DNA of 58,269 nucleotides, taken from a virus. Lineage: Duplodnaviria > Caudoviricetes. The number at the start of each line of letters is the position of its first letter. Position 1 is the first letter of the stretch. Shown here piece after piece: positions 8,017 through 39,796 of the stretch. A model generated the notes under the pieces. The model did not search any database and was not told the origin of the DNA. It saw only the letters and a program-made list of their open reading frames with translations. A program made the translations under genes and the position numbers. The stretch lies in the IMG/VR virus record IMGVR_UViG_3300017728_000008, positions 1 through 58,269 of that record; one strand, given 5' to 3'.

Positions 8017-8139
8017 TTATTTTTCGTTAGTTTTATTTTTTTCGATTTTGGTTTTTTTTAATTCACCGCTAATCTCATCTTCTTTAAAAATTTTTTTTAA
8101 ATGCTTTTTCATTCCGGGTGTGTATTCTCTACTTCTCAT
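8017..8139 (-). CDS. tiny hypothetical protein (40 aa)
   Basis: ATGA overlap with the groEL stop; MRSREYTPGMKKHLKKIF... Confidence 0.35.
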   Translation of the reverse strand: MRSREYTPGMKKHLKKIFKEDEISGELKKTKIEKNKTNEK

Positions 8140-9749
8140 TTGTTAGAGGTTTCATAACTACGTGCCATTGTCACGATAGCATTAGTTGATAGTATCGTTA
8201 CGGCAACTGAAACTGCATTTTGCAGAGCCTGTCTTGTTACTTTAACAGGGTCTATAACTCCAAGAGTCATTAAGTATCCGTATTTTTCTTTCTTAACATC
8301 ATAACCGTAATTGTTTCCTTTAACATCATGGTATATAGATTTAAAATCTAAACCTGCGTTATCTAAGATTTGAATTAACGGAGCTGACAAAGATTCAGCT
8401 AAAATTGCTAAAGCAATTTTTTTTGATAAATTTTCTTCTTTATTATATCTAATAGCACAAGATTTGCTATGATTAAATAGTGTTAATCCACCACCGGGCA
8501 ATATACCTTCTTCAAGAGCGGAGCGAACGGCACACACCGCATCATCCACTCTGTCATATAATTCTTTTTGTTCAAGGTCAGTATTCCCTCCTACATATAC
8601 CACTCCAATACCTCCTGTTAAAGAAGCAATTCTTTTGTTAAGAAATTCTTTATCATCTTTTCTTTTAGCTTCTTCAAGTGCTTCTTGTAGTTGGGTTATT
8701 CTATCAACAACCTCTTGGTTAGATTCCTTGTCGTCTTTAACGATGACAGTTGAGTCACGTCCAACTATCACCTTGGAACAATGACCCAAGTCGTTGAACT
8801 TAATCAAACTCAAATCATCGCCTGTCTTTTCGCTAAAATATGTAGCACCTACACTTATTGCAATATCCTGCATAAGCTCGTGTTGCCTGTATCCAAAATC
8901 CGGAGGAACTATGTTACAAATTTTTAATCCATTCTTTACTACGTTTGCAGCTAAGGTGTTTATTACATTGGTAGAGCACGGAGCAATAATTAAAAGTTTC
9001 TTACCCTCTTGTATGATTGGTTTTAATATATTTTCAATTTGAAGTATGTTATTAATCTCTCCATCACATACCAAAACGTAAGTGTCTTCAAGGACACATT
9101 CATCTCTTTTTTGGTCGTTTATAAACAAGCCTGAAGAATATCCTCTTTTTATTTTAATACCTTTTGTTGTTTCGTAATAGGTAGCGGAGGTTTTACTATT
9201 TTCAACAGTAACTACACCATCCTTGCCTACACTCTCATATACATCTGCAATAATGTCCCCAATAGTTTTATCATTGTTGGCTGAGATGACTGCAACATCA
9301 CGCAATCTTTTAGCGTCTAATTTTTTTCCTTTTACTTTTAAATCTTTTGATATCAATTTCGTTATGTCCACTAAATGCCTGAGCACTTCGGTTCTATTAA
9401 CTTTGTCGGTTATTAATTCGGTACCTGCATTAACTAAAGCCTCAGCAAGTACAATAGCCGTGGTAGTCCCATCTCCTGCTGAAGATGCGGTTCTGTCGGC
9501 TGCCTCTTTCATCATTCTAACCGCAAGGTTTTCTACCGGGTCTAATAATGAAATTGATTTCGCTACAGTCACACCATCCTTAGTTACCGTAATTCCATGT
9601 AAGTGTTCGGGTGATTCTATTAACACAGTATTACCTCGTGGTCCAAGTGTGGACTTTACTGCGTTTGCTATTTGTTTTATTCCTTGAATTAATTTGTTTC
9701 TTCCCTCATCGGAGAAATGAAGTTCTTTTGGATTGAATCCTTGTTGCAT
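8136..9749 (-). CDS. groEL: chaperonin GroEL
   Basis: AVKSTLGPRG, VTKDGVTVAK, AGDGTTTA, RVDDAVCA, EEGILPGGG, GVIDPVKVTR; no C-terminal GGM tail. Confidence 0.97.
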   Translation of the reverse strand: MQQGFNPKELHFSDEGRNKLIQGIKQIANAVKSTLGPRGNTVLIESPEHLHGITVTKDGVTVAKSISLLDPVENLAVRMMKEAADRTASSAGDGTTTAIVLAEALVNAGTELITDKVNRTEVLRHLVDITKLISKDLKVKGKKLDAKRLRDVAVISANNDKTIGDIIADVYESVGKDGVVTVENSKTSATYYETTKGIKIKRGYSSGLFINDQKRDECVLEDTYVLVCDGEINNILQIENILKPIIQEGKKLLIIAPCSTNVINTLAANVVKNGLKICNIVPPDFGYRQHELMQDIAISVGATYFSEKTGDDLSLIKFNDLGHCSKVIVGRDSTVIVKDDKESNQEVVDRITQLQEALEEAKRKDDKEFLNKRIASLTGGIGVVYVGGNTDLEQKELYDRVDDAVCAVRSALEEGILPGGGLTLFNHSKSCAIRYNKEENLSKKIALAILAESLSAPLIQILDNAGLDFKSIYHDVKGNNYGYDVKKEKYGYLMTLGVIDPVKVTRQALQNAVSVAVTILSTNAIVTMARSYETSNK

Positions 9750-9799: not shown

Positions 9800-9980
9800 A
9801 AATGCTCTGTTTTTGTGCTCCTATACTACTACTACCTTTTTATGGTGAAATATATTTTTCTTAATACGAGGCTTTAAACTAAGCATTTTAAGCATTTTAT
9901 AATTAGTTAGTTGATAATCAATAAGTTATAAAAAAAAAGTAAGCATAAAGTTAACATTAACTAAGCATTAACTAAACACT
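9800..9980. repeat. AT-rich non-coding module with TAAGCAT/TAACAT repeats and TGATAATCAA (origin-like)
   Basis: Several TAAGCAT copies; AATCAATAAGTTA fits the IHF-type consensus WATCAAnnnnTTR; resembles 19610-19775. Confidence 0.4.
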
Positions 9981-10264: not shown

Positions 10265-10317
10265 AACTAATTGTTTTTACAAAGATAAGAAATTTTTATT
10301 AGATATCTGTAGTCATC

Positions 10318-10545
10318 GGGTCCCCCCCCGCCCTACGTGCACGACCCCGCTACCGGAACCGATTTTTTTTGTTGACCGGGGGTTGTGTTTTTCCTGCTGA
10401 GGTTCTGATTTTTTTGACTTTTTTTCTGTACCCTGTTACCCTCCTGTACCGCTCCGCATCCGCTCCGCTACCTGTATTCGTTTGACGTTACCGGTACCCC
10501 TGTTGACCCCTGTCCCCCTGTGTACCTTCCCCTGTTCCACAGGTA
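10318..10545. repeat. GC/pyrimidine-rich non-coding tract with about 7 CCTGT repeats (putative genome terminus/packaging region)
   Basis: Poly-C and poly-T runs; CCTGT near 10432, 10443, 10471, 10499, 10509, 10517, 10531; CCGCTCCGC twice; sits at the divergence of the two arms. Confidence 0.5.
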
Positions 10546-10704: not shown

Positions 10705-10734
10705 TTGAAAATCAAATATGTTTTACTATATTTG
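10705..10734 (+). promoter_or_regulatory. early promoter (TTG ... TATATTTG)
   Basis: Bacteroidota -33/-7 arrangement upstream of the first early gene. Confidence 0.6.
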
Positions 10735-10784
10735 AACCATTGATGGACAAGAGATGTACATCAGTTAACTTAAATTACATAAAA

Positions 10785-11420
10785 ATGAGAAATTTAATGC
10801 AAATCGAGGAAGACTTTTTAGCTTCCTCATCAGTAAGAACCGACATCAATTTTGGTTCAATTTTTAACTTACAATCATCAGTTGAGACTGCTAAGAAGTC
10901 AAAATTTGAGAATAGCTTGAAGTTATCGAAGTTGGTGGTTGCTTCTTGTGAGTGGTTCAAAAAACCGGAAACAAAAACTTTACTTGAAGACGAAGGTATC
11001 GAATGGACGAACCAAGAAGTATTTTTTAACAGGGTATTTGGATGGCAAAAATCATTTGGTCACAAGATGTTGAAAGCCGGAAAACTTGAGCCGTCAATCA
11101 TTACGAAGTTCAAGAGAGAGTGTACGAGAGCAGAGAACAACGGAGAAGATACGAACCGAAGTATCCAACAATTATTGAAATTCGCTAAACAAGAGGAAAG
11201 CGGAAACGAAGAAGCATCAGTTTCAACAGAGAAAACATTTGTTACGTTCTCAGTTGCTAAGGATGGTTTGAATGGGGACACCGGTTTCTCGATGAGATTA
11301 ACCGAGAGCGGTATCAAAATTAGTGGAGAGTTAGAAAGCGAAATCGTCAACAACAAAATACAGAGTTTATTTGCTGAGATGAAAGTAATGATAGAGAGAA
11401 TTAATCAAGAAAACCAATAA
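10785..11420 (+). CDS. first early gene; hypothetical, possible HTH-like DNA-binding segment
   Basis: Start revised to MRNLMQ after an A-rich leader; FFNRVFGWQKSFGHKMLKAG helix pair. Confidence 0.65.
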   Translation: MRNLMQIEEDFLASSSVRTDINFGSIFNLQSSVETAKKSKFENSLKLSKLVVASCEWFKKPETKTLLEDEGIEWTNQEVFFNRVFGWQKSFGHKMLKAGKLEPSIITKFKRECTRAENNGEDTNRSIQQLLKFAKQEESGNEEASVSTEKTFVTFSVAKDGLNGDTGFSMRLTESGIKISGELESEIVNNKIQSLFAEMKVMIERINQENQ

Positions 11421-11424
11421 CAAC

Positions 11425-11440
11425 GTGTCTTCGAAGACAC
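11425..11440. repeat. 16-bp palindrome, copy 2 (perfect, GTGTCTTCGAAGACAC)
   Basis: Between stop 11420 and ATG 11455. Confidence 0.95.
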
Positions 11441-11454
11441 CTAAAACAAAAAAA

Positions 11455-12459
11455 ATGAGAGATTTATCAAACAACGGAGTTCAGTTCACAACCTTAAACG
11501 ACACCACAAGACGTGGTCAAGTGAGCGGTTATCATTCTAAACCGGACCCAATTTTCAGAACCAAAGCAACCGCTCAAGACGTTAGCGGTTTAAAATCAGT
11601 TGACCGCAAGAACATTAGTTTTGATGGCACAGAGTACGAGAGCAATTTCAGAATTGGTTTCGAAGTAGAGAAAGCACGTCTTCACAGAGGAGCAGTTGAG
11701 GAGTATCCATTATTTTGTGGGTTCGAAACAGATTCTTCTTGTGGTTATGAAGCGGTTACTCACGTTTTACCTTTGGTAGCGAAGTCAATGTGGAGAACGA
11801 AAGTTTTCAACATGTTTCACCAAGCTAAGAAGATAATTGATGACGAGTACTCACCATCAGATGCTTCTTGTGGTGGTCATATGACTATCTCTGCTGAGGG
11901 TATGACCGGAGCTGAGTTGATGAGTAGAATTAGAAAATTCACACCAATCATCTTATCTATATTTCGTAAGAGGTTAACCAACAGATATTGCAATGGCAAT
12001 CCGCAGTTGTTACCAATGGGAGAGGGAGTTATGTCTTCCGGTTCATCGAAGTATGTTGTCTGTAAAGATACCGGTTTCGGTGTCGAGTTCAGAATACCAT
12101 CGAGAATTACATCTGTTAAACAGATGATAAGACGTTACGAGTTAATGTACATCTTGATGGACTTTGCAGTAAACCAACCGGATGCAACAACGAGAAAGTT
12201 TTACAATGCAGTTAAACCAATCCTGTTGAGTATGTACGAGAAAGACGAAGTGAAAGTTGAAAAGCTAATCACGTTAGCAAGAGATTTCGAGAAGTTCGTC
12301 AAGACCGGTAAAGTTGACCATACTACTGCCGGATGGCTCGAGGGGTGGTGGTCAAGTAGAAACTACTCTTTAGGTAAGTACAGAAATTACTACAAGAGAA
12401 ATTTCAGACCGGATAGCGATGTTGTGCTACAATGGAGAGGTTCAAATCGAATGTTCTAA
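11455..12459 (+). CDS. putative amidoligase (COOH-NH2 ligase type 2)
   Basis: IGFEVEK, ETDSSCG-YEAVT, SCGGHMTIS, KY, GVEFRIP motifs; start revised to MRDLSN. Confidence 0.75.
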   Translation: MRDLSNNGVQFTTLNDTTRRGQVSGYHSKPDPIFRTKATAQDVSGLKSVDRKNISFDGTEYESNFRIGFEVEKARLHRGAVEEYPLFCGFETDSSCGYEAVTHVLPLVAKSMWRTKVFNMFHQAKKIIDDEYSPSDASCGGHMTISAEGMTGAELMSRIRKFTPIILSIFRKRLTNRYCNGNPQLLPMGEGVMSSGSSKYVVCKDTGFGVEFRIPSRITSVKQMIRRYELMYILMDFAVNQPDATTRKFYNAVKPILLSMYEKDEVKVEKLITLARDFEKFVKTGKVDHTTAGWLEGWWSSRNYSLGKYRNYYKRNFRPDSDVVLQWRGSNRMF

Positions 12460-12466
12460 TCCACAT

Positions 12467-12494
12467 AGGGTGGTGTCTTCAAAGACACCATCCT
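12467..12494 (+). other. conserved hairpin AGGGTGGTGTCTT-CA-AAGACACCATCCT (contains palindrome copy 3, 12473-12488)
   Basis: 13-bp stem with one G-U pair, 7 nt after the amidoligase stop; identical to 14748-14775. Confidence 0.9.
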
Positions 12495-12544
12495 CTGTCG
12501 AGAGATGAGTGTCTCTCCTGATGAGTCCAAAAGGACGAAACAGA
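12494..12544 (+). ncRNA. type III hammerhead ribozyme HH1; cleavage predicted after GUC (C12499)
   Basis: Stem III UCUGU/ACAGA; stem I GAGAGA-UGAGUG-UCUCUC; core CUGAUGA 12518-12524; stem II GUCC-AAAA-GGAC; GAAA 12537-12540. Fully canonical core. Confidence 0.95.
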
Positions 12545-12564
12545 AACCTTTAAATAAAAATAAA

Positions 12565-12873
12565 ATGAGAAATTTAATTTTAAACAACACAGACATCAAA
12601 GAATACTTTGCTAACAATAGCTTTGATGAGATGCTCGTAACAACAGACTTAAAAGCATTTAACAATTTAGAAAACCACGATGACTTAGATTGGGAAGAAG
12701 TAGTTGAGTTTGGTGTGAAGAAAGTTGTAACGACTCCTTTTGCACACGAATATTCAACAATAGACTACGACAAAATTACTGCAGTATGCATTCGTTTCGA
12801 CAATGGTGTACACGATGACACAGAGATAGTAATAAATCACAACACAGAAGTTGGACCATTTAATAAAAACTAA
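12565..12873 (+). CDS. hypothetical early protein (start revised to MRNLIL)
   Basis: A-rich leader before ATG 12565; the ORF-track start 12505 lies inside the ribozyme. Confidence 0.7.
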   Translation: MRNLILNNTDIKEYFANNSFDEMLVTTDLKAFNNLENHDDLDWEEVVEFGVKKVVTTPFAHEYSTIDYDKITAVCIRFDNGVHDDTEIVINHNTEVGPFNKN

Positions 12874-12877
12874 AACT

Positions 12878-13042
12878 ATGAAAACACCAAAACTTACATT
12901 AGAAAACTTAAACAAGTACGAAGTTCGTTCACTTGTTTATGCTCTCACGAAAGTTGCTAAAGAAACGACCGATGAGTTAACGAGAGACAATGCTTTAAAT
13001 TTATTAACCAAAATACAAAACGTAAAAAGATATGAAAACTAA
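12878..13042 (+). CDS. hypothetical early protein (start revised to MKTPKL)
   Basis: ATG 4 nt after the upstream stop. Confidence 0.6.
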   Translation: MKTPKLTLENLNKYEVRSLVYALTKVAKETTDELTRDNALNLLTKIQNVKRYEN

Positions 13043-13229
13043 AGTAGAATATTTTATCAGTATGAAAAGTTGCTACGGCAATTACACAAGATTCAAAAAG
13101 GAGTTCAATGACGAACGTCACTTTGAAAATTGGTACGACTTTATGTCCAACAAGGGACATAAGATAATCGGAGTAGAAAAAATCAAATCAAACTTAGACA
13201 GGGTAAAAGATAAATTTGGTTATGTCTAA
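13032..13229 (+). CDS. hypothetical early protein
   Basis: 65-aa ORF, packed. Confidence 0.65.
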   Translation: MKTKVEYFISMKSCYGNYTRFKKEFNDERHFENWYDFMSNKGHKIIGVEKIKSNLDRVKDKFGYV

Positions 13230-13246
13230 ATTTTGTCTTACCTTTG
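13215..13246 (+). promoter_or_regulatory. early promoter TTTG-N20-TACCTTTG
   Basis: Full Bacteroidota -33/-7 consensus. Confidence 0.7.
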
Positions 13247-13289
13247 TTTAAATCAATTATTATTTTAACTTAATTATAAAACTATTATT

Positions 13290-13505
13290 ATGAAACTTTC
13301 AAACATTATTCAAAACACAATCCTTTCAATCGTAACATTATTTGTAATCGCATCAAGCGTAAGACTGCTAATTCATATCGCAGTAACTGAGCAATTTGGT
13401 TTGCCTCAGTTCCTCGCATTCGGATTAGTATTCGGCTTCATCGGTTTCTTATACTCTCTTATCATTGGAATCGTAGTGAACGAGTGGAAGTCATCAATGG
13501 CTTAG
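13290..13505 (+). CDS. small two-TM membrane protein
   Basis: Two hydrophobic helices in 71 aa. Confidence 0.7.
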   Translation: MKLSNIIQNTILSIVTLFVIASSVRLLIHIAVTEQFGLPQFLAFGLVFGFIGFLYSLIIGIVVNEWKSSMA

Positions 13506-13514
13506 ACTCTACTA

Positions 13515-13539
13515 AGGGTGGTGTATCTCACACCATCCT
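13515..13539 (+). other. hairpin AGGGTGGTGT-ATCTC-ACACCATCCT (variant cassette hairpin without the palindrome tip)
   Basis: Same 10-bp basal stem as the hairpins at 12467 and 14748. Confidence 0.85.
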
Positions 13540-13587
13540 CGTATCGAGATGTGTATCTCGACTGATGATACCAAAAGGTTGAAACGG
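13539..13587 (+). ncRNA. type III hammerhead ribozyme HH2; cleavage predicted after GUA (A13543)
   Basis: Stem III UCGU/ACGG; stem I UCGAGAU-GUGU-AUCUCGA; CUGAUGA 13562-13568; stem II (U)ACC-AAAA-GGU(U); GAAA 13581-13584. Confidence 0.87.
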
Positions 13588-13599
13588 AAACAGAGTTCG

Positions 13600-13615
13600 G
13601 TGTCTTCAAAGACAC
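13600..13615. repeat. 16-bp palindrome, copy 4 (extended CGG...CCG)
   Basis: Between HH2 and ATG 13635. Confidence 0.95.
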
Positions 13616-13634
13616 CGCTCACAATTCAAACATT

Positions 13635-14741
13635 ATGTGTATAATTATTATCAAACAAAAAGGCAAAGATGTGCCAAGAGAAGTTCTCAAAACATCTTCC
13701 AAAATCAATCCTCACGGATTAGGTATTGTATGGCTCGACACGTTCGAGGTTACATATCACAAGTCAAAAGAGTTCGGTGTGTTGGATAACGACAGACCCT
13801 ACATCGCTCACTTTAGGTATGCTACAATAGGTAAAGTTTGCAAGGCAAACACACACCCATTTGTATGTGGCAGAAATACAGACGAGTTACTAATGATGAA
13901 CGGAACGATTAAAGGTTATGGTAGTCCAACAATGACAGACACCGAAGACCTTGCAATCAAGTTGGGTTCAACACCAAGGCATGGTTGGAAACAATCGCTA
14001 TCTAAATTCGATGCAAGGTTTGTTTCAATCAACAAAAGAACACGTTCGTTTCAAATCTACAACAAGAACCTGTTCACTATTCGGGATGGAGTTTGGTACT
14101 CCAAGAACAATGTACTGCAAGACAATCTTATGGCGGTCTATGGTACATTAAGAAAAGGCGGTAGCAATTACTATCGGCATCTAAAAAACGAAAAGCATTT
14201 AGGCACCGGAAAGACCACAGATAAATACCCTATGGTTTCTAATGGTATACCTTACTTGCTTGAGAAAAGAGGCGAAGGAGACAATGTGGTGGTTGATGTT
14301 TTTAAAGTCAGCGATATGGCGATGAATAAAATAGATATTCTTGAGGGACATCCGGAGTGGTACCGCAGAAAGAAAGTTGACATAAGTTTAAAAGGAAAAG
14401 TATACCCCTGTTGGATATACTTTAACGAGGGTGCAGAGACAATGTGGAACAAACAGAACCACATAGCAGACTACCAAGCGATACGAACGATTAGTTCGTT
14501 TGGCATAAAACGAACGTATGATACGTTTGAAGACCTTGAGACCACGTGGATTGATGATGTACCTACGTGTACTCAATTAGAGTTTGCAGACTTAGAGGTA
14601 GAGGAGTTCAATAAAGAGAACGAGTCCCCGGTCTGTATAGATTGTTGTCACGACTTAGAGTACGATGGTTTTTCTCATTACCATTGTAATGGTTGTGATG
14701 GTTGGTTCTCCTATAACGAAGTGATGCACTTTCAAGGATAG
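13635..14741 (+). CDS. class II glutamine amidotransferase fused to a gamma-glutamylcyclotransferase-like domain and a C-terminal Zn ribbon
   Basis: N-terminal Met-Cys, NPHGLG, AHFRYAT, NTHPF, MNG; then AVYGTLRKG...IDILEG...YRR; CIDC...CNGC. Confidence 0.85.
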   Translation: MCIIIIKQKGKDVPREVLKTSSKINPHGLGIVWLDTFEVTYHKSKEFGVLDNDRPYIAHFRYATIGKVCKANTHPFVCGRNTDELLMMNGTIKGYGSPTMTDTEDLAIKLGSTPRHGWKQSLSKFDARFVSINKRTRSFQIYNKNLFTIRDGVWYSKNNVLQDNLMAVYGTLRKGGSNYYRHLKNEKHLGTGKTTDKYPMVSNGIPYLLEKRGEGDNVVVDVFKVSDMAMNKIDILEGHPEWYRRKKVDISLKGKVYPCWIYFNEGAETMWNKQNHIADYQAIRTISSFGIKRTYDTFEDLETTWIDDVPTCTQLEFADLEVEEFNKENESPVCIDCCHDLEYDGFSHYHCNGCDGWFSYNEVMHFQG

Positions 14742-14747
14742 CCACAA

Positions 14748-14775
14748 AGGGTGGTGTCTTCAAAGACACCATCCT
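14748..14775 (+). other. conserved hairpin (contains palindrome copy 5, 14754-14769)
   Basis: Identical to 12467-12494; 6 nt after stop 14741. Confidence 0.9.
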
Positions 14776-14825
14776 CTGTTCACGGATGTGTGTCCGTGCT
14801 GATGAAGTCAAAAGACAGAAACAGG
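14775..14825 (+). ncRNA. type III hammerhead ribozyme HH3; cleavage predicted after GUU (U14780)
   Basis: Stem III UCUGU/ACAGG; stem I CACGGA-UGUGUG-UCCGUG; CUGAUGA 14799-14805; stem II (A)GUC-AAAA-GAC(A); GAAA 14818-14821. Confidence 0.88.
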
Positions 14826-14847
14826 AACTTAAATTAAAATTAAAATT

Positions 14848-15051
14848 ATGAAAGCAAATGAATTATTAAAATTTTTAAAAAGTGTAGAACAACAAGTACA
14901 AGGTTACGGAAAAACCTTAGAAGACGTTGAAGTAAATTTCAGAAGAACAGATGACTCTGACATTGAACCAACCGACTCTGTAGGTGTAGACTTATTTGAT
15001 GCAGAGTCAAATAAAATTGTAGAAAGTATAGTATTAATGGGTAAATATTAA
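14848..15051 (+). CDS. hypothetical early protein
   Basis: 67 aa, A-rich leader. Confidence 0.7.
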   Translation: MKANELLKFLKSVEQQVQGYGKTLEDVEVNFRRTDDSDIEPTDSVGVDLFDAESNKIVESIVLMGKY

Positions 15052-15070
15052 ATCAATAAAAATTAAAATT

Positions 15071-15382
15071 ATGAAAATAAAAATTCAACAAAGAAGTATC
15101 TACCACAAATTTGCTGAGGTAGAAATATATGTAGACCCTGTCGCATATGAACATTGGAAACTTGACAATGGTAAGTACGCAAGTCTTCAAGAATTTCTCA
15201 ATGAGAACGAAGACTTATATGTAGATAAGATAGACGAGGCAATGGACAAAACAACATACGAGTTTGGCTTTGGTACAGACTCAGATGCTAATTCACATTA
15301 CAATTCTTCTATGAACGAACCTGAATCAGAATCTGAATGGAGATACGAATGTGACGAATTAAAAACCGGAGGGCATTTATAA
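15071..15382 (+). CDS. hypothetical acidic early protein
   Basis: 103 aa, A-rich leader. Confidence 0.7.
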   Translation: MKIKIQQRSIYHKFAEVEIYVDPVAYEHWKLDNGKYASLQEFLNENEDLYVDKIDEAMDKTTYEFGFGTDSDANSHYNSSMNEPESESEWRYECDELKTGGHL

Positions 15383-15383
15383 T

Positions 15384-15734
15384 ATGGAAACAAAAGTAAT
15401 AGTAACAGACGACAAATTTATTTGGTTGGACATTACTGATGTATTGTCAGTCCACCAAAAAAGAGAATCAAAAGAATCGGTATACTCCTCTTGGATGACG
15501 CACACTCTGTATGTTCTGTATGACGATGGAACCGAAGAGACAATAGAAAGTGTAGACGAAATAGATGAAGCCATTAACCTAAAGCTAAGAGTAGCAATCG
15601 AAGTTGGATACCTACCGAAGTACAACGGAACAAGCAAAGGTGTCTTCAAAGACACTTGGTTTCATAAGGCAGACAAAATTCTAAAGAACGGATATTGGTA
15701 TGCAAAGATAAACGATATAAAGTTTGGGAATTAA
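15384..15734 (+). CDS. hypothetical early protein (contains palindrome copy 6, 15640-15655)
   Basis: 116 aa; the palindrome is read as GVFKDT. Confidence 0.7.
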   Translation: METKVIVTDDKFIWLDITDVLSVHQKRESKESVYSSWMTHTLYVLYDDGTEETIESVDEIDEAINLKLRVAIEVGYLPKYNGTSKGVFKDTWFHKADKILKNGYWYAKINDIKFGN

Positions 15735-15754
15735 ATCTGAATGTACTATATTTG
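15723..15754 (+). promoter_or_regulatory. promoter TTTG-N20-TATATTTG
   Basis: Full Bacteroidota -33/-7 consensus. Confidence 0.7.
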
Positions 15755-15790
15755 TACAAGCAATGAACACTAATAATTAAATTTAATCTT

Positions 15791-15988
15791 ATGAAAAATC
15801 AATTCAACGAAATCTTACCTGCACAAAACGTGCAGGTTTCCACAGGCGAAACTCCCCGCATAGTTGCGTGGTGTGTTGAGGTTAAGTGGGACGACAATTC
15901 AACAGAGAAGTTAGCGGACGTGCCTACTTATGTAAGTAGAAACATAGACGCATGGCTTGATGAGGTTGAGGAATCTAACAAAGAATAG
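15791..15988 (+). CDS. hypothetical protein
   Basis: 65 aa downstream of the promoter. Confidence 0.65.
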   Translation: MKNQFNEILPAQNVQVSTGETPRIVAWCVEVKWDDNSTEKLADVPTYVSRNIDAWLDEVEESNKE

Positions 15989-15990
15989 TT

Positions 15991-16245
15991 ATGGCAACAC
16001 TAATCAAAGCAAGTGGTCAACACGTTGGCGACTTTAAATCTGAAACCTTAGAGCAAATGCAACAGGCAGTAGGAGGATACATTGAACCGGTCTACACAAA
16101 CAACAAGGTAGTTATAGTAGACGAACAAGGTTTGTTAAAAAATTTACCTTTAAACATTGAGGTCTCTGCAATGGTAGGGAAGATGATAGTAGGAGATGCT
16201 ATTGTCTTTACCCCAAAAGAATGGAGAGACCGCAACAAAATTTAA
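15991..16245 (+). CDS. DUF3846-like protein
   Basis: LEQMQQAVGGYIEPV...IVDEQGLLKNLPLN...IVGDAIV. Confidence 0.75.
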   Translation: MATLIKASGQHVGDFKSETLEQMQQAVGGYIEPVYTNNKVVIVDEQGLLKNLPLNIEVSAMVGKMIVGDAIVFTPKEWRDRNKI

Positions 16246-19580: not shown

Positions 19581-19609
19581 AGGGGGGACTATAATCCTCC
19601 CTTTTTTTT
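19581..19609 (+). terminator. intrinsic terminator
   Basis: AGGGGGGA-CTATAA-TCCTCCCT followed by a T run. Confidence 0.8.
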
Positions 19610-19778: not shown

Positions 19779-22193
19779 ATGACATCGACAATAACAATTT
19801 TTAGAAACATAAAAGAGACTGATACTCCTTTTCACAGAGGGGTGGAGCATATTATAGAAAGAATAAAGAATGGAGCAAGTAAAGAGTTAGTTAAAAGAAT
19901 AAGATTAGAGCAGAAGAAGGCAGAGAGAAATGAGTTAAAGAAAAAACTTCCCGCTATATGTTTTTCAGGAAAGTTTATAAAAAGAAACGACTCTTCAATT
20001 CAGGAACATTCGGGGTTAATATGTTTAGACTTTGATGGTTACGAAAAGAACAAGGAACTATTACAAGACAAAGAAAACATTACCAAGTCTCCATATACTT
20101 ATTCTGTATTTATCTCACCAAGCGGGAAAGGATTAAAAGTTTTAGTTAAGATACCACAGGACATAGACAATCACGTAAATTATTTTAATAGTTTACAGAA
20201 TCATTTTAATAACGATAAGTTTGATGTGACTTGTAAAAACCTTTCACGTGTATGCTACGAAAGTTATGACCCACTAATTTACCACAACGAAAACTCATCA
20301 GTATGGGATAAAATAGAGGAGAAAGAATACACAGAAAAACATCAATACAGAGACGCACACACTATACCAATCACAGATGAAAACAGAATTGTAGAAATAC
20401 TTTCAGTATGGTGGCAGAAAAAATACCCAATGAATGAAGGACAGAGAAATCACAACTGCTACGTTCTTGCATCTGCGTTCAATGATTTTGGAATAAATAA
20501 ATCTTTAGCAGGTTATATCTTGTCTAACTATCAAACATCTGATTTTAATGAGGCAGAGATTAACAGGACTATAAATAGTGCTTACTCAAACACTCAAAAC
20601 TTTGGGACTAAGTATTATGAAGATGAAGACCGACTGAACAATTTAAAAATAAAACTTAAAAGAGGCACATCAAAAAAAGAAATCCGCTCCCAATTAGCAG
20701 AGACAGATATGGAGAGCGAGGTAATAGATGCCGTTCTCACTCGTATAGATGAAGAAGCACAGGAGACTCAGTTTTGGACTAAGAATGAAAAGGGAACGAT
20801 TAAAATAATCCACGTTCTTTTTAAACAATTTTTAGAAGACAACGGCTTTTACAAATACTGCCCGGAAGGAGGAAAGAATTATGTCTTTGTAAAAGTAACT
20901 AACAACTTGATAGACCACACGGATGAGAAATCTATTAAAGATTTTATTTTAAATTATCTTCTTGAATTAGACGACTTAAGTATTTACAATTACTTTGCCG
21001 ACCAAACAAGATTTTTTAGAGAAGAATTTTTGACCCTATTATCTACCATCGACATATACTTTATTGAAGACAATAAAGACACATCTTACTTATACTTTAG
21101 AAACTGTGCAGTCAAGGTAACTAAAAAGGAAATAACAATAATAGACTACATTGATTTAGGTGGGTATGTGTGGAAAGACCACGTTATAAATAGAAATTTT
21201 ACCACTTGCAATGATGACACAGACTACAAAGTATTTATCTTTAACATATGTAAAGGCGAGGAAGACCGAAAACTTTCTATGGAAAGTACAATCGGTTTTA
21301 TGATGCATGGTCATAAAAATTTATCTTACTGCCCGGCAGTAATTTTAAATGATGAAGTTATATCCGACAATCCTGAAGGAGGTACAGGCAAGGGAATATT
21401 TATGAATGCATTGAGCCAAATGAAAAAAGTGGTCACCATTGATGGTAAGGCATTTGCTTTTGAAAGAAGTTTTGCTTATCAACTTGTTTCTGCCGACACG
21501 CAGATACTTGTATTTGATGATGTAAAAAAACATTTTGATTTTGAAAGACTATTTAGTGTTGTAACAGAAGGTATGACGCTCGAAAAGAAAAACAAAGATG
21601 CAATTAAAATACCCTTTAGCAAATCACCTAAGATAGCCATCACTACTAATTATGCAATAAAAGGAAGTGGTAATTCTTTTGCGAGGAGAAAATGGGAACT
21701 TGAACTACACCAACACTACAACAAAAACAATACACCTTTAGACGAGTTTAATAAATTATTCTTTGGAGATTGGAATGATGATGAGTGGTGTGCGTTTGAC
21801 AACTATATGATTAACTGCCTACAAGGATATCTCAACACAGGATTAGTACAAAGTAAATTTGTTAATCTTAAAAAGAGGCAACTATCTGCAGAAACTTGTC
21901 ACGACTTTATTGAATGGTGTGGTCTCTTAAATGGAAGTGAGGCTAACTTAAACCTTAGAGTAGATACTAAAATTAATCTACAATCTTGCTACATAGATTT
22001 CATAGAACATTATCCGGATTACGGACCGAAGGCTAAGTTAACTATAAGCAGAATAAGGTTTAACAAATGGATGGTAGCTTTTGCTATATTTAAAACAGGA
22101 GTATCACCCGAGCAGGGTAGAGACTCTGCGGGAAAATGGATGAGGATGTTAAGGAACGATGAGATTAACCCACAAGCAAGATTAAATGTCTGA
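19779..22193 (+). CDS. primase-helicase (BT4734/VirE-N prim-pol, PriCT, P-loop helicase)
   Basis: LKKKLPAICFSG, SGLICLDFD, FISPSGKGLKV, EGQRNH, Walker A GGTGKG, Walker B ILVFDD, ITTN. Confidence 0.85.
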   Translation: MTSTITIFRNIKETDTPFHRGVEHIIERIKNGASKELVKRIRLEQKKAERNELKKKLPAICFSGKFIKRNDSSIQEHSGLICLDFDGYEKNKELLQDKENITKSPYTYSVFISPSGKGLKVLVKIPQDIDNHVNYFNSLQNHFNNDKFDVTCKNLSRVCYESYDPLIYHNENSSVWDKIEEKEYTEKHQYRDAHTIPITDENRIVEILSVWWQKKYPMNEGQRNHNCYVLASAFNDFGINKSLAGYILSNYQTSDFNEAEINRTINSAYSNTQNFGTKYYEDEDRLNNLKIKLKRGTSKKEIRSQLAETDMESEVIDAVLTRIDEEAQETQFWTKNEKGTIKIIHVLFKQFLEDNGFYKYCPEGGKNYVFVKVTNNLIDHTDEKSIKDFILNYLLELDDLSIYNYFADQTRFFREEFLTLLSTIDIYFIEDNKDTSYLYFRNCAVKVTKKEITIIDYIDLGGYVWKDHVINRNFTTCNDDTDYKVFIFNICKGEEDRKLSMESTIGFMMHGHKNLSYCPAVILNDEVISDNPEGGTGKGIFMNALSQMKKVVTIDGKAFAFERSFAYQLVSADTQILVFDDVKKHFDFERLFSVVTEGMTLEKKNKDAIKIPFSKSPKIAITTNYAIKGSGNSFARRKWELELHQHYNKNNTPLDEFNKLFFGDWNDDEWCAFDNYMINCLQGYLNTGLVQSKFVNLKKRQLSAETCHDFIEWCGLLNGSEANLNLRVDTKINLQSCYIDFIEHYPDYGPKAKLTISRIRFNKWMVAFAIFKTGVSPEQGRDSAGKWMRMLRNDEINPQARLNV

Positions 22194-25664: not shown

Positions 25665-26075
25665 ATGAGATTCGAATCTAATAAAGATTTAAAAAGAGAA
25701 AAGAAAGCAATAGAAAAGTTTGTAAGCAAGTTCAAAGGCACCTATAAGAAACTTGGAGAAAACGATGTGGACTACAGGGTCTTTGATGGAAATGGAAAAC
25801 TAATAGCTTACGTTGAGGTAAAGGGAAGATACCGTACAATTAATGATGCATACCCGCTGCCGGTGGCAGCAAGAAAAGTTGTAAAGCTCTGCGATAAAAG
25901 ACTGAACCCTGTAATGATTTGGGCATGTGAAGACGGCATCATATACGGACTTCCATCTGAAATTAAGGGTGAAGTACGATGGGGAGGCAGAAAGCCACGA
26001 GAGGGTGCTTATAATGACGAAGAGCTTATGATATACTATCCCAAACAAAAAGCATTCAGGTATTTTAAATATTAG
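25665..26075 (+). CDS. PD-(D/E)xK nuclease-like protein
   Basis: DVDY...AYVEVKGR. Confidence 0.6.
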   Translation: MRFESNKDLKREKKAIEKFVSKFKGTYKKLGENDVDYRVFDGNGKLIAYVEVKGRYRTINDAYPLPVAARKVVKLCDKRLNPVMIWACEDGIIYGLPSEIKGEVRWGGRKPREGAYNDEELMIYYPKQKAFRYFKY

Positions 26076-29000
26076 TCAATAGGGTATAGCTTACCACCGA
26101 TTTCTTTGTAACCCATATCTTTTAGCATTTGTTTACGCATCTCATTTCGTTCTTTTCTAAGCCTATCTCTTTCTCCATACTTTAGCTCATACATTTCAGG
26201 GTCATACCTTTTTAAATCCTGCTTAGTTCTAATACCACCTTGAGGAATTACACCCTCATATTCTCCTTTTTTCTGAGGACGATAAGACGGAGTAACACCT
26301 AAAAAGTCATATACATTATCGTAAAACTCTTCTTGATTTGTCCCTTCAAAGATTCCTGTTTTTAATGAATTATAAAAGCCTATGAATGGGTCTACCTGAG
26401 CACCTAAACCTAATTCTATGACAGGTACTATATTCTTCATAAACCAATTGTCAGGGTATTTTTTTGCGTTTCTATTCATTTTACTAATTGCAGAACGGAA
26501 AGGATTGGTTACGTCATCTACAGGTCTTCTTATTCCTCTTGACTTATTTATTAATCCCTCAACCTCTGAACCGATATAAGGAAGTTGATATAGTAAATTT
26601 AAACCTAACATTGCATCTTTTATCTTTCTATAAAAAGCATCTCTATCCTCATCATCTCCTCGTGTTAGTAGTGCAAGATTAGATACTCCTACAAACAATG
26701 CGTTGGCTACTGCAAAGTTTAAATAGAATCCTCTTATGTCTTCCTTGTTAGGCATTTTGCCTTCCTTAAATGAACGAGAAATGTTTGTAGCTTTTTGCAT
26801 TACTTTATTTATTTGTAAAAATAATGTACTGCCGAACATAGTAAAACCTCTTGACGCAAAATCACCTCTTAACTGCAAAGGTATTTTTTCAGTAGCTCTT
26901 CGTGTTTGCTGAGTAGAATTGTAATCATTAAATGCTTCCAATGCTGCAGCTTCGCTCATGCCGTTTGCAATATTACGTTTGTAATTAGCGTAATAACCCA
27001 TAACCCCCATTATATCTCCTATTATGGTTGGACGAGCAGACAGTCTTTTAAATTTATCAACAAACCTTTTAAATAATCCTGTTCCTTTTCCGGCTTGTTT
27101 AAATGTCTGTGAACCGGACTCAAGACCATACACATCACCTTCCAAACCTTCAATCATACGTTGGTCAAATTGTGCGGACATCTTTCTTGCCTTAGCTATT
27201 GCACCTTCTTTACCAATTAAATCCGGAGCCATTTCAAACAACACACCTACAGTATCTACTGCAAACATAGCCATATCAATAGCTGATTGGATAGGTCTTG
27301 GTAAATTAGAATTTTTAGTGTATTCATATTGTTCAAACGCATTAATAAAAGAAGTTGCTTGTTTAGGAATCTGTACTAATTTAAAAGATAAAGCAAACCC
27401 TGTAAATAATCTTTGTATTTTTTCTAAAAACCCTGCACCTATTCCATCTGATGCTGCAGCAGACTGAGGGGCAATACTTGCGTTCACTAAAGTTTTCATT
27501 AGTTTTTTTACACCCGCTACTTCTATTAAAGTATTTACTGCCGGGATATTAAAGAAGCTATTTAGTTGTTGTACCCCTACTGCCATGGCTTTATATTTTT
27601 CCATTGTCTCAATATGGTTTAACATTACCTCTGAAAATGCCCCCTCTTTAAGGTTTATATCACTTGTTTCATCTACTCTTTCTTTAAAAGCAGGTGCAGT
27701 CTCTGCAGAAAAAATACCATTAAAGTCTCCGTCTTCTAAAAGTTTAGCATCTACTTTTTGAGCTACGGTTTTAGTAGGGAAGTAGTTCTCTACAAAGCCT
27801 AAGTTGACCCCATTAACTTGTTTATACACTGCGTTGGTTTCATTGAAATACTCTGTGCTAAAATAATTAACTATCTTGTCTGCAAACTGAGTAAGCTGAG
27901 GACCTAACTCTGTCTCTATGTCTGCTAATACTTCTGAGGTTATTCCTTGTTTTTCAAGTTTAGCTCTCTGTATAGGATTCTTGCTTAAAGCATATAATCT
28001 TAATAGTTGGTTAGCACTAAATTTAGATTTATATTTTCTACCTGTTTTTGAAGTAATTAAATCTAATGTAATTGTATTCGGACTACCTAATTTATTTACT
28101 CCGAGAGCTCTGTTAATTGCAACCTCAACATCTTCAAATGATTCAAACCCAACTTCTCGTGCAAAGTCATCAATTTTATAACGCATCTTACGTTTGTTTT
28201 GTAAGACCACCTCTTCCATTCTATTTAGTTTTCGATAAACATTATCAGTAAATAAAGTTATTTTTTTTGCCTTATTATCTAAAAAGTTAGTTATGGTTCC
28301 TAAATGAGAAAGCATATTTTTAAAATTGGTTAACAAACCCGGACTCTTACCATCCTTTGTAGACCTGCCAAATATACTATTGACAACCGCATTGGTTATT
28401 TTTTTTCTTAAACCTCCAATAGAATTATCACCTTCTATTGCATCCCTGTCTTCATTAAGTTCGTTTTCATTTTTTAAAGAACCATCTTCATTGAATAATT
28501 CAGGATTAGTTTCCTTTATCTGCTCAGTAGCTTGTTGTCTTTTAGCTTCTGCATCAGCAGCTTTTTGCAATCTTCTATTATTAAATCTTAATATAGATTC
28601 TTTTTTCTGTTGTTTTACATCTTCAAGCAACGCTTGAGCTACCTCTAAAGAAGATTCTTGTAAATCTCCAAATTGGTCATAAGCTAACTGTAATTGTAAC
28701 AAACTTTCTTCCCTTAAAGTAAGTTCTTCATTATTTAAAACTTTTTGCGAAGACTCGTTAATTGTAACCCTGTTACTATCAAGTTTGTTCTGAATGTCTT
28801 TTAAGGCTTGTTGTCTTAGTTCCGGATTAGTAATAGAAACTGCATCTAATACTTCTTTGATATTAGCAAATGTAACTTGACCAATAGCATCAATACCTTT
28901 TGCTCTTGGCTTCCCTGATTGTTTTCTTGGACTTGCCTTAGCTTTAACTATTTTATAGATATCTTTAATTACATCTCTCTTTATTTTAGCACGTTGCTGC

Positions 29001-38965: not shown

Positions 38966-39796
38966 TTAAGGGAAAGATTTCATCACTTCAGATTCAACCG
39001 CAAACAGTTCTGAAGGATTAATGGCAATAGTTTTGTCTAAAGTAAGAGTAAACTCACAGTAATGCCCCAAAATACCATGTGATTCTGCTATAGGATTCTT
39101 AATATAAAGAAAATAAGCATCATTTATAGGGACAGGATAAGTAGTACCCGCCACCGTAGTAGTGTCAATTACTAATTGATTTATGCCATTTACTTTATCT
39201 ACTTGGATATCAGTAATTACACCCGCAAATTGAGGGGTGTCGTAGGGAGGTACTGAAAAATAAAGATAATCTCCAACACTAACGATACTTCCAATATTAA
39301 CATTCAAATTAAAAAGTATTTCATATGCTGCAGCAGGACCGTTTTCGGACACACTTCTGCCTATTCCATTTAAAGAACGTAATTCAAAAGCACCTTGCGT
39401 TACACCTGCACCTGTATTGTTATTGGTTCTTATAAAAGCAAACCAATCTCCCTCTTTTCGCTCATACCAATTTTCTGTTGGACCTGCGGTAATATATCCA
39501 TTGTTTTGAATGTCAGTATTACCATTAAAACTCCAAGCATCATCACTTTCTAAATTAATAGTTTTAAATATTTTATTTTGTAAAGGTTGCTCATTAAATA
39601 CTGTAGAGATAGTAGAGTCGTAAGTGGTTCCATAAAAAGTATTATAGTTACTATTGACATTGTGTCTAAACAAATTACCACCTTTAAAGGTGTAAAAGTA
39701 TTGATTCATTCCTATCATATAATCAGGAAAGTAAGAGTAAAAAGATGGAAATCCTTTTGAACCTTCGCTATATGTTAATGTATAATTTTCGGGCAT
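38966..39796 (-). CDS. tail protein, probably the C-terminal part of the tail stabilisation/nozzle protein
   Basis: YTLTYSE...PSFYSY...NKIFKTINLES...RKEGDWFA...ELFAVESE. Confidence 0.6.
   Translation of the reverse strand: MPENYTLTYSEGSKGFPSFYSYFPDYMIGMNQYFYTFKGGNLFRHNVNSNYNTFYGTTYDSTISTVFNEQPLQNKIFKTINLESDDAWSFNGNTDIQNNGYITAGPTENWYERKEGDWFAFIRTNNNTGAGVTQGAFELRSLNGIGRSVSENGPAAAYEILFNLNVNIGSIVSVGDYLYFSVPPYDTPQFAGVITDIQVDKVNGINQLVIDTTTVAGTTYPVPINDAYFLYIKNPIAESHGILGHYCEFTLTLDKTIAINPSELFAVESEVMKSFP

Follow-up and report, generated by a model that had tools for sequence, protein, structure and literature searches.

From its sequence, the early region of this phage quite probably carries three functional type III hammerhead ribozymes, each of which forms a single module with a hairpin and punctuates the early transcripts; the hammerheads would thus probably cut the phage mRNA into pieces. 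The cassettes span 12467–12546, 13515–13590 and 14748–14827 of the window (the whole 58,269-nt stretch of DNA that was analysed), and all three lie on the sense strand in intergenic spaces between early genes. Their parts and surroundings are listed below, where RF00008 denotes the Rfam Hammerhead_3 model and R1 a clade-specific covariance model whose training set includes the three window copies.

10705–10734, plus strand: Bacteroidota-type promoter-like site, TTG-N-TAnnTTTG, from a regular-expression scan, just 5' of the first gene of the plus-strand block
11425–11440, plus strand: hairpin-only spacer, a 16-nt palindrome of the cassette-hairpin family, between the ORFs 10743–11420 and 11455–12459
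11455–12459, plus strand: upstream cistron of cassette 1, 334 aa, with no Pfam or PHROG match
12467–12494, plus strand: hairpin 1, 12 bp with a 4-nt loop, abutting stem III
12494–12544, plus strand: hammerhead 1, type III, GUC, 10.1/11.1 pair G-C; RF00008 47.6 bits (E 9.9e-9), R1 78.6 bits
12565–12873, plus strand: downstream cistron of cassette 1, its ATG 20 nt past the ribozyme 3' end
13216–13246, plus strand: promoter-like site from the same type of scan, 5' of the ORF 13290–13505 and between cassettes 1 and 2
13290–13505, plus strand: upstream cistron of cassette 2, 71 aa
13515–13539, plus strand: hairpin 2, 10 bp with a 5-nt loop
13540–13587, plus strand: hammerhead 2, type III, GUA, 10.1/11.1 U.U; RF00008 25.2 bits, R1 67.8 bits
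13598–13617, plus strand: additional hairpin from the cassette-hairpin palindrome family, lying past hammerhead 2 and ahead of the following start codon
13635–14741, plus strand: sole gene between cassettes 2 and 3, with a GATase-like N-terminus and a gamma-glutamyl cyclotransferase-like (GGACT) domain
14748–14775, plus strand: hairpin 3, 12 bp
14775–14825, plus strand: hammerhead 3, type III, GUU, 10.1/11.1 A.A followed by G-C; R1 71.7 bits
14848–15051, plus strand: downstream cistron of cassette 3, its ATG 22 nt past the ribozyme 3' end
19581–19602, plus strand: intrinsic-terminator-like site with a full T run, the only canonical one on this strand between 10 and 20 kb

Every cassette has the same order: hairpin, GUH triplet, stem I, CUGAUGA, stem II, GAAA and stem III, with cuts predicted after 12499 (GUC, copy 1), 13543 (GUA, copy 2) and 14780 (GUU, copy 3). 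Stem I consists of 7 bp closed by a 4-nt loop, stem II of four positions capped by AAAA, and stem III of 3–5 bp. All three copies contain the hammerhead core (C3 U4 G5 A6 N7 G8 A9, G12 A13 A14, the A15.1-U16.1 pair, and a residue other than G at H17), and both a pairing descriptor and the covariance model recover the topology in which stems I and II are loop-closed and stem III is open. The type III identity proposed in the initial annotation is thus borne out by core, topology and covariation (see below), its coordinates for the three elements proved correct to the base, and its observation that the stems diverge while pairing is kept holds for stem I, which differs in sequence among the copies with its pairing intact. 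The gap after the stop codon, given there as 6–9 nt, measures 7, 9 and 6 nt, the upstream ORFs ending at 12459, 13505 and 14741, respectively. In each copy, the hammerhead fold lies 0.9–2.0 kcal/mol above the minimum free energy of the whole cassette, and it is thus not the minimum free energy fold.

Chance does not account for these matches. The pattern CTGATGA-N8–30-GAAA occurs eight times where 1.08 would be expected, a count that none of 100 shuffles reached, and the hairpin arm, allowing at most one mismatch, 12 times against 1.9 expected. With filters off, R1 finds exactly the three cassettes in the whole window, the next match scoring 11.4 bits. The Rfam search that had been proposed as a check gave a divided result: RF00008, which has the core and three-stem topology in common with the window copies, aligns full-length to copies 1 and 2, but none of the copies reaches its gathering score of 48.5 bits, and a 76-nt search of copy 3 returns no RF00008 match at a threshold as loose as E ≤ 10. 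Accordingly, Rfam at the gathering score yields no matches in the window; nor does it report any hammerhead in 14 related loci, or call any of the 18 copies in five related loci. At E ≤ 0.5, the search of four loci lacking type III copies returned only a chance microRNA match, and the type I copies of one locus, L058, are absent from the Rfam matches. A large set of phage hammerheads therefore falls below the Rfam cut-offs and would be missed by routine annotation; this invisibility may itself be a new observation.

Comparison with relatives strengthens the case. A megablast search of 11000–16000 against GenBank phages gave no match, and the comparison was made with 55 related loci drawn from phage contigs of ∼60 kb. 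The search of related contigs suggested by the initial annotation was productive: R1 finds 88 copies in 46 of the 55 loci, every one of them on the sense strand. Among 47 whole records, 38 carry between one and four type III copies (76 in total, with 16 records having a single copy), and within each record the copies share one strand and span a few kilobases. A core-only pattern, which requires no pairing, gives 84 plus-strand and no minus-strand matches in 509 kb; the pairing descriptor also gives 84 matches, all with a 12-nt stem-loop II. Covariation was computed on 78 unique copies, in which the catalytic core columns are invariant, pairing is seen in 88.8% of cells (67.4% in shuffles) and the covariation score is 0.641, as against 0.225 in shuffles (0 of 500 reach the observed value) and 0.08–0.11 for slid partners. 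In stem I, pairing reaches 99.6%, and six of the seven pairs show double changes. G.U pairs are frequent, which fixes the strand as RNA, and compensatory stem change together with an invariant core indicates selection on the RNA fold; the cassettes are under selection. Across the clade, U-G/A-N-N-U-R is preserved in loop I and AAAA predominates in loop II, which hints at a possible tertiary contact between the two loops of the kind that supports activity at low Mg2+. Position is conserved too: the stop codon of the upstream ORF lies 21–66 nt before the predicted cut in 87 of 91 copies, and in 59 of the 91 type III copies, 18–31 nt separate the ribozyme GAAAC from the ATG that follows. The module is nonetheless dispensable, since ribozyme-free relatives exist: nine of the 47 records have no type III copy and, when type I is also counted, six of the 55 loci have no hammerhead at all.

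With a threshold of −10 kcal/mol or better within 40 nt upstream, a stable hairpin precedes 69 of the 84 copies in the clade and 61 of the 87 found in other viral contigs, compared with 7% and 5% of control windows; its junction with stem III is gapless in 61 of the 69 and 51 of the 61, respectively. This near-obligatory abutting hairpin may be new. Type I hammerheads (22 copies in 15 loci, all sense strand) achieve a similar arrangement by permutation: the stable hairpin itself serves as stem III, in some copies (e.g. those of loci L011 and L015) as a member of the GTGTC...GACAC hairpin family, and the predicted cut falls 2 nt past it. In both topologies, therefore, the predicted cut lies 2–8 nt 3' of a stable hairpin, and an A-rich leader of ∼20–30 nt, measured from the cut (type I) or from the ribozyme 3' end (type III), runs up to the next start codon; for type I, the ATG lies 19–33 nt past the predicted cut in 17 of 22 copies, as counted by eye. 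Some relatives without ribozymes have spacers that consist of a hairpin alone, as in locus L031 and at seven sites in MW202828.1, whereas the spacers of others combine a hairpin with a tRNA-like minihelix. Many cassette hairpins occupy the same position with very different sequences.

The three copies lie within 2.4 kb of a plus-strand gene block, each between ORFs. The initial annotation placed them in a single early operon; the block does lie on the plus strand, but the host-type promoter-like site at 13216–13246 separates copies 1 and 2, and this is therefore perhaps not one operon. With a further promoter-like site at 15724, some genes may have their own transcripts, in which case the ribozyme may only trim read-through RNA. 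The gene between cassettes 2 and 3 matches PF06094 (2.2e-20) and phrog_2520; the ribozyme-flanked genes vary from genome to genome. Other roles for the hairpins were considered. Intrinsic (Rho-independent) terminators were rejected, as the plus-strand scan, which demanded at least five T among the eight bases past the stem, listed none of the three cassette hairpins. Also rejected were hairpin promoters of the N4 type, which serve a virion RNA polymerase: no family could be assigned to the 3187-aa ORF, and the cassette-hairpin sequences differ within one genome. A search for phage-encoded end-healing or end-sealing enzymes found none among the 31 window ORFs scanned against Pfam, many of which have no match.

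An aspect overlooked by the initial annotation is that copies 2 and 3 are non-canonical at position 10.1/11.1: only copy 1 has a Watson–Crick pair (G-C), copy 2 having U.U and copy 3 A.A. Neither is peculiar to this phage. Pattern searches of viral contigs gave 71 type III folds among 84 U.U matches and 33 valid folds among 54 A.A matches, with the rest of stem II showing compensatory change in both variants, and in a scan unselected at 10.1/11.1, U.U accounts for 28 of 67 type III copies. A stem II beginning with U10.1-U11.1 is a natural hammerhead variant that cleaves better than any other mispair, according to the available part of PMC3088659. A literature search on G10.1/C11.1, and the part of PMC544870 available, yielded nothing about mismatches. 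The A10.1-A11.1 form of copy 3 is a putative ribozyme variant that may be new. So may be a link between the 10.1/11.1 pair and the cleavage-site base N17, where G-C appears to accompany C; U.U to accompany A and never C; and A.A to accompany U. Taken jointly, the two linked claims that the hairpin is an integral fourth helix and that the covariation of N17 with 10.1/11.1 reflects an unrecognized contact are a tentative and rather doubtful proposal. The former would make rapid, irreversible cleavage possible even with a minimal stem III, and would define a distinct 'hairpin-hammerhead' module giving host-independent punctuation of mRNA; the latter would place the contact beside the A9/G10.1 metal site of the hammerhead active centre.

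How such a module might operate can be outlined as follows. The ribozymes would be transcribed within early mRNAs that span several genes and would fold during transcription, with the hairpin probably stacking on the 3–5 bp stem III and thereby aiding its formation. Given the intact core, the RNA should cut itself after GUH, and the weak stem III would let both products separate. The upstream mRNA would then end in the hairpin and a 4–6 nt tail bearing a 2',3'-cyclic phosphate, and should resist 3' exonucleases, whereas the downstream mRNA would carry a 5'-OH, with the folded body of the ribozyme at its start, followed by an A-rich leader of ∼20 nt and the start codon. By these steps, the phage would mark off its early transcripts without a host RNase, and the stability and translation of neighbouring cistrons would be uncoupled. 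The self-processing of mRNA put forward in the initial annotation is consistent with all the findings, and the hairpin-then-cut rule of both hammerhead types strengthens it; it sits less easily with the non-canonical 10.1/11.1 position of two of the three copies, with the failure of all three to reach the Rfam cut-off, and with a short stem III in a fold other than that of minimum free energy. Four runs over the region provide short, low-depth Logan contigs, too sparse to reveal RNA ends: none of those from RNA runs covers a cassette or terminates at a predicted cut, and a single contig, from a run of unknown type, crosses copy 2.

One alternative holds that the ribozyme acts as a leader insulator, freeing the leader of the next cistron from upstream structure and ribosomes, rather than acting on mRNA stability: in a host without strong Shine–Dalgarno pairing, ribosomes would load on a defined, unstructured 5' end, and the hairpin would only aid folding. 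RiboJ, a synthetic insulator comprising a hammerhead and an added hairpin, works in this way, giving the downstream gene a standard 5' end and leader; the tight start-codon spacing of both hammerhead types and the A-rich leaders, which have no obvious Shine–Dalgarno sequence, are as this idea would predict. It leaves unexplained why both topologies place the cut immediately 3' of a stable hairpin, and why relatives have hairpin-only spacers. In RiboJ, the hairpin comes after the ribozyme and remains with the downstream RNA, whereas each cassette hairpin in the window precedes its ribozyme and remains with the upstream RNA. Insulation is compatible with mRNA punctuation rather than exclusive of it; as the principal function, we consider it distinctly improbable. 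Another suggestion is that a host RtcB-type ligase closes 12500–13543 and 13544–14780 into exonuclease-proof circles. A 5'-OH and a 2',3'-cyclic phosphate are suitable chemistry for RtcB, and the gene at 13635–14741 is exactly flanked by two ribozymes; however, 16 of the 38 type III records have a single copy, no RNA ligase, RtcB or kinase family occurs in the 31 Pfam-scanned window ORFs, and the first fragment contains a promoter-like site. Perreault et al. themselves raised the possibility of circles and looked for such products, with none detected according to the text available (PMC3088659), and we regard circularization as very unlikely.

It is unlikely, though less so than either of these, that copy 1 alone is efficient, copies 2 and 3 being slow or conditional, either as regulated sites or as decaying relics. 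The Rfam scores do drop from copy 1 through copy 2 to no match for copy 3, and Perreault et al. (2011; PMC3088659, in the part available) excluded 10.1/11.1 mispairs from their screen and considered that slower phage variants are perhaps regulated; against this, the U.U and A.A folds are widespread with compensated stems II, U.U is frequent even in the unselected scan, and it is the mispair reported to cleave best. As improbable as RNA circles is the notion of a DNA-level element, in which the hairpin is a recombination boundary for shuffling gene cassettes or a DNA site for a phage protein, and RNA cleavage is incidental. The 16-nt hairpin palindrome is present at 12 places in the window (0.67 expected), some of them within ORFs on both strands, its core is common to phages whose GGACT proteins are only 42–68% identical, and the flanked genes vary, as noted above; but such an element would not account for compensatory stem change with G.U pairs around an invariant catalytic core, for cassette hairpins of quite different sequence at the same position, or for the sense-strand location of every copy. 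The palindromes inside ORFs and on both strands are, for their part, unexplained by a model based on mRNA ends.

The preferred reading, in which self-cleavage beside a hairpin punctuates the early mRNAs, has a counterpart in the early mRNA of phage T7, where intercistronic cuts by RNase III leave a 3' stem-loop on each upstream message. There, a host protein cuts inside the double-stranded hairpin, whereas here the RNA would cut itself beside the hairpin and give 5'-OH and cyclic-phosphate ends. The processing of phage transcripts by hammerheads is ordinary in kind and was already published in 2011: Perreault et al. (PMC3088659; text available in part) described prophage genes flanked by clustered hammerheads that cleave in vitro and in vivo, and proposed that these process long phage transcripts into single-gene mRNAs. 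The window contains a cluster of this type, with at least two same-orientation, intergenic ribozymes in a phage gene block, and it resembles the prophage clusters in having several such hammerheads between genes of a phage transcription unit. A weak stem III, common in that set, and U10.1-U11.1, known from it, are also seen in the window copies. The present clade differs in comprising lytic-type marine phages of ∼60 kb, in the hairpin that abuts stem III (unmentioned in the main text of that study as far as available, although its supplements may hold related sequences), in the A.A variant, and in the interchangeability of types I and III behind the hairpin. Also comparable is HHphage, of haloviruses HF1 and HF2, where a polycistronic early transcript has a hammerhead only a few nucleotides ahead of the start codon of an early gene and a mapped 5' end is close to the cut (PMC3088659, available part). 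It differs from the window copies in its core insertions and high salt demand, and in being a single copy at the start of an operon with, in that text, no 5' hairpin described; the Flavobacterium phage elemoF copy is closer to it in placement than the window copies are. A literature search yielded nothing specific on a hairpin-hammerhead cassette or on these marine phages.

The role of the hundreds of phage and prophage hammerheads is still called undefined in the available part of a review (PMC6765202). Were the link between N17 and 10.1/11.1 structural, a further contact would become known in a ribozyme that ranks among the best studied. Cultured phages suited to testing exist in Cellulophaga phage phi18:3, which has a type I copy 5' of ardA, Flavobacterium phage elemoF, whose type III copy lies in a 5' leader, and Streptomyces phage Gibson, with four matches to the model. 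Overall, the placement of the predicted cut after a stable hairpin in two permuted topologies, together with the 20–30 nt leader and the hairpin-only and tRNA-like spacers of relatives, provides a comparative argument for one role.

The three hairpin–hammerhead cassettes proposed by the initial annotation are present in the window with exactly the anatomy described, and each hairpin starts within 6–9 nt of a stop codon, as had been claimed:

12467–12546, plus strand: cassette 1, hairpin 7 nt past the ORF end at 12459; GUC triplet, predicted cut after 12499
13515–13590, plus strand: cassette 2, hairpin 9 nt past the ORF end at 13505; GUA triplet, predicted cut after 13543
14748–14827, plus strand: cassette 3, hairpin 6 nt past the ORF end at 14741; GUU triplet, predicted cut after 14780

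The predicted cuts, derived from the sequence, agree with those annotated. In every copy the hairpin abuts the hammerhead, in which the triplet precedes a stem I of 7 bp, the core segments CUGAUGA and GAAA flank stem II (AAAA loop), and stem III has 3–5 bp. The hammerhead core pattern has eight matches in the window, against 1.08 expected, and the hairpin arm has 12, against 1.9 expected. For the full cassettes, the hammerhead fold lies 0.9–2.0 kcal/mol above the minimum free energy, a count that leaves out tertiary and stacking energy. The copies differ at 10.1/11.1, the first position of stem II: only copy 1 has G-C there, copy 2 having U.U and copy 3 A.A.

The Rfam hammerhead models, with which the initial annotation had proposed to check the cassettes, did not call any of the three in the window at gathering score: against RF00008 (Hammerhead_3), copy 1 came closest (47.6 bits; cut-off 48.5), copy 2 scored 25.2 bits and copy 3 gave no match at all (E ≤ 10). 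Similarly, none of 18 copies in five related loci was called at gathering score. Run without filters, a covariance model of the related phages (R1), built with the window's three copies included, recovered exactly these three in the window; the next match scored 11.4 bits.

The relatives were retrieved via the gene flanked by copies 2 and 3 (13635–14741, plus strand), which encodes a γ-glutamyl cyclotransferase-like (GGACT) protein, yielding 55 loci from viral contigs of ∼60 kb whose GGACT proteins are 42–68% identical to that of the window. A descriptor search found 84 type III hammerheads, including the window's three, all 84 being on the sense strand; a core-only pattern, in which pairing was not demanded, also gave 84 plus-strand and no minus-strand matches in 509 kb, and, therefore, the pairing is not imposed by the descriptor filter. 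In an alignment of 78 unique type III copies, 88.8% of paired cells were filled by pairs, compared with 67.4% in shuffles, and the covariation score was 0.641, compared with 0.225 in shuffles (0 of 500 reached 0.641) and ∼0.1 for slid partners; stem I was 99.6% paired, with double changes at six of its seven pairs. The annotation had also suggested seeking the cassette in related phage contigs: R1 recovered 88 copies, exclusively on the sense strand, spread over 46 of the 55 loci, and 76 copies in 38 of 47 whole records (one to four each), where the copies of any one record share a strand and fall inside a few kb. The type III assignment is, therefore, borne out by core and topology in all three copies and by covariation in related loci and, judged by sequence comparison, the hammerheads of the window are genuine and strongly selected.

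The non-canonical starts of stem II are not peculiar to the window. Across viral contigs, a U.U start recurs widely, with 71 of 84 pattern matches folding as type III and the others mostly resembling type I, and A.A gives 33 valid folds among 54 matches, with G-C next in all of them. In a scan unselected at this position, U.U occurs in 28 of 67 type III copies (among the matches listed, 80 of 119 stretches). A U.U start was reported by Perreault et al. (2011; PMC3088659), who note that it had been shown to support more cleavage than any other mispair; for A.A, nothing was found in the literature. The base at the cleavage site, N17, correlates with the class of the 10.1/11.1 position. Within the clade, G-C copies carry C (45) or A (7), U.U copies A (24) or U (1), and A.A copies U (5) or C (2); among the matches listed from the unselected scan, the corresponding counts are C 29, A 4 and U 2 for G-C, A 21, U 7 and C 0 for U.U, and U 4 for A.A. 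For 205 pooled unique copies, Fisher's exact test gives p = 2 × 10−30, although the copies are non-independent and the pool is variant-enriched; here U.U copies have A or U, with C in 1 of 87, most G-C copies have C, and A.A copies have U or C. The association also holds between copies with near-identical stem-loop I: of 83 such pairs of different class, 46 differ at both N17 and 10.1/11.1. The sole U.U copy of the clade with C17 (L023, 5144–5198) has a U4-to-C change in its catalytic core, and may be a decaying ribozyme.

The placement of the type III copies is regular. The predicted cut lies 21–66 nt after the upstream stop codon in 87 of 91 copies, and in 59 of 91 a distance of 18–31 nt separates the ribozyme GAAAC from the following ATG; the outliers in the latter mostly reflect a 35-aa ORF rule that missed a small gene or took in an ATG inside the ribozyme, as for the window's copy 1. 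The 40 nt upstream contain a strong hairpin (−10 kcal/mol or better) in 69 of 84 unique clade copies (control windows, 7%) and, for other viral contigs, in 61 of 87 (control windows, 5%), with zero gap to stem III in 61 of the 69 and 51 of the 61, respectively. The hairpin sequences are very diverse; nevertheless, a GTGTC...GACAC core is common, and its recurrence in hairpins across many related phages may point to a partner that recognises the sequence. As a 16-nt palindrome with 6 nt between the arms, it occurs 12 times in the window, against 0.67 expected (9082, 10562, 11425, 12473, 13600, 14754, 15640, 19150, 23537, 31867, 50540 and 57715): six or so are intergenic, including one just 3′ of the capsid-type gene, and the others fall within ORFs of either strand.

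The loci lacking type III copies prompted a type I descriptor, which found 22 hammerheads, all in sense orientation and distributed over 15 loci, with two each in L058, L059 and L060; at least one hammerhead of either type is present in 49 of the 55 loci. Stem III of the type I copies is itself a stable hairpin, and some of these hairpins, such as those of L011 and L015, belong to the GTGTC...GACAC family; in both permutations, therefore, the predicted cut lies close behind a stable hairpin, on its 3′ side. On type I cleavage, the entire ribozyme would stay with the upstream RNA, and the predicted downstream RNA starts 19–33 nt before an ATG in 17 of 22 copies (rows read by eye). An A-rich leader of ∼20–30 nt precedes the start codon, counted from the cut (type I) or the ribozyme 3′ end (type III). 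Other spacers hold a hairpin only, as in L031 and at 11425–11440 of the window. In the closest GenBank relative (MW202828.1, 44722–60850), R1 found no hammerhead; the same kind of hairpin stands at seven early intergenic sites, 2–3 nt past the stop codon, each followed by an A-rich leader of ∼17–40 nt. In three further loci, an intercistronic spacer that holds a hammerhead in other phages carries a hairpin and then an apparent acceptor-plus-T-arm minihelix (by eye; coordinates approximate), with the other tRNA arms absent and no ARAGORN call:

L058, 2183–2227: hairpin and tRNA-like minihelix
L060, 2275–2320: hairpin and tRNA-like minihelix
L045, 3200–3255: hairpin and tRNA-like minihelix

Directly 3′ of the GGACT gene of L048, in the place of window hammerhead 3, is an odd tRNA-like gene (1443–1525; Rfam tRNA, 46.4 bits; ARAGORN anticodon of two bases). 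The apparent interchange of hammerhead, hairpin-only and tRNA-like elements at such spacers fits a role in RNA processing. A related phage without a hammerhead has an intergenic Rfam DUF805b motif (L044, 2101–2135; 39 bits, gathering score 35.6).

The window, rated 96% complete as a whole IMG/VR record of 58,269 bases, encodes portal, capsid-type and other virion proteins, a GroEL-like chaperonin, primase and helicase, and at the protein level it is similar to phages of Flavobacterium, Cellulophaga, Polaribacter and Maribacter; MW202828.1 is from an uncultured podovirus (primase identity, 71%). There are two giant ORFs:

26072–35635 (−): 3187 aa, no match in Pfam or PHROG
40741–47757 (−): 2338 aa, matches phrog_14478, virion structural protein

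The chaperonin gene (8136–9749, minus strand; PF00118, 2.5 × 10−59; phrog_5725) has a promoter-like site at 9801, and the ORF at 38966–39796 contains a crAss muzzle-protein C-terminal domain. Between divergent gene blocks, an odd C-/G-rich stretch with short repeats (10300–10500; genome G+C, 35%) could be a genome end or origin. The plus-strand block at 10.7–26 kb runs from small genes to replication genes and, therefore, the label 'early region' is fair. Candidate promoters of the putative consensus TTG-N17–23-TAnnTTTG lie on the plus strand at 10705, 13216 and 15724, and a terminator-like site with a full T run is at 19581 on the same strand; none of the cassette hairpins was listed in that plus-strand scan. 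Copy 1 would thus belong to a candidate unit that starts at ∼10.7 kb, and the other two copies to a second candidate unit that starts at ∼13.2 kb.

Systems of this type were already described in 2011. Perreault et al. (2011; PMC3088659) describe prophage genes often flanked by multiple hammerheads and suggest that long phage transcripts may be processed to single-gene mRNAs; they report cleavage in vitro for three tandem arrangements and in vivo for one, and looked for circular or spliced products but saw none. A 2019 review (PMC6765202) regards the purpose of phage hammerheads as still undefined. We found neither the abutting hairpin nor this phage clade described in the literature, although published supplements may hold related sequences. 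Cultured phages carry related hammerheads: a type III copy (40.1 bits) is present in the 5′ leader of gp59 of Flavobacterium phage elemoF (NC_055853.1, 17865–17921), Cellulophaga phage phi18:3 has a type I copy in the gp050–gp049 interval that precedes ardA (NC_021794.1, about 21890–21960; L304, 1490–1560), and Streptomyces phage Gibson has four model matches on a single strand (MK305891.1, 53200–58594). The mechanism put forward in the initial annotation, self-cleavage of the early mRNA, is the best reading of the cassettes and a probable one, which the comparative evidence now supports.
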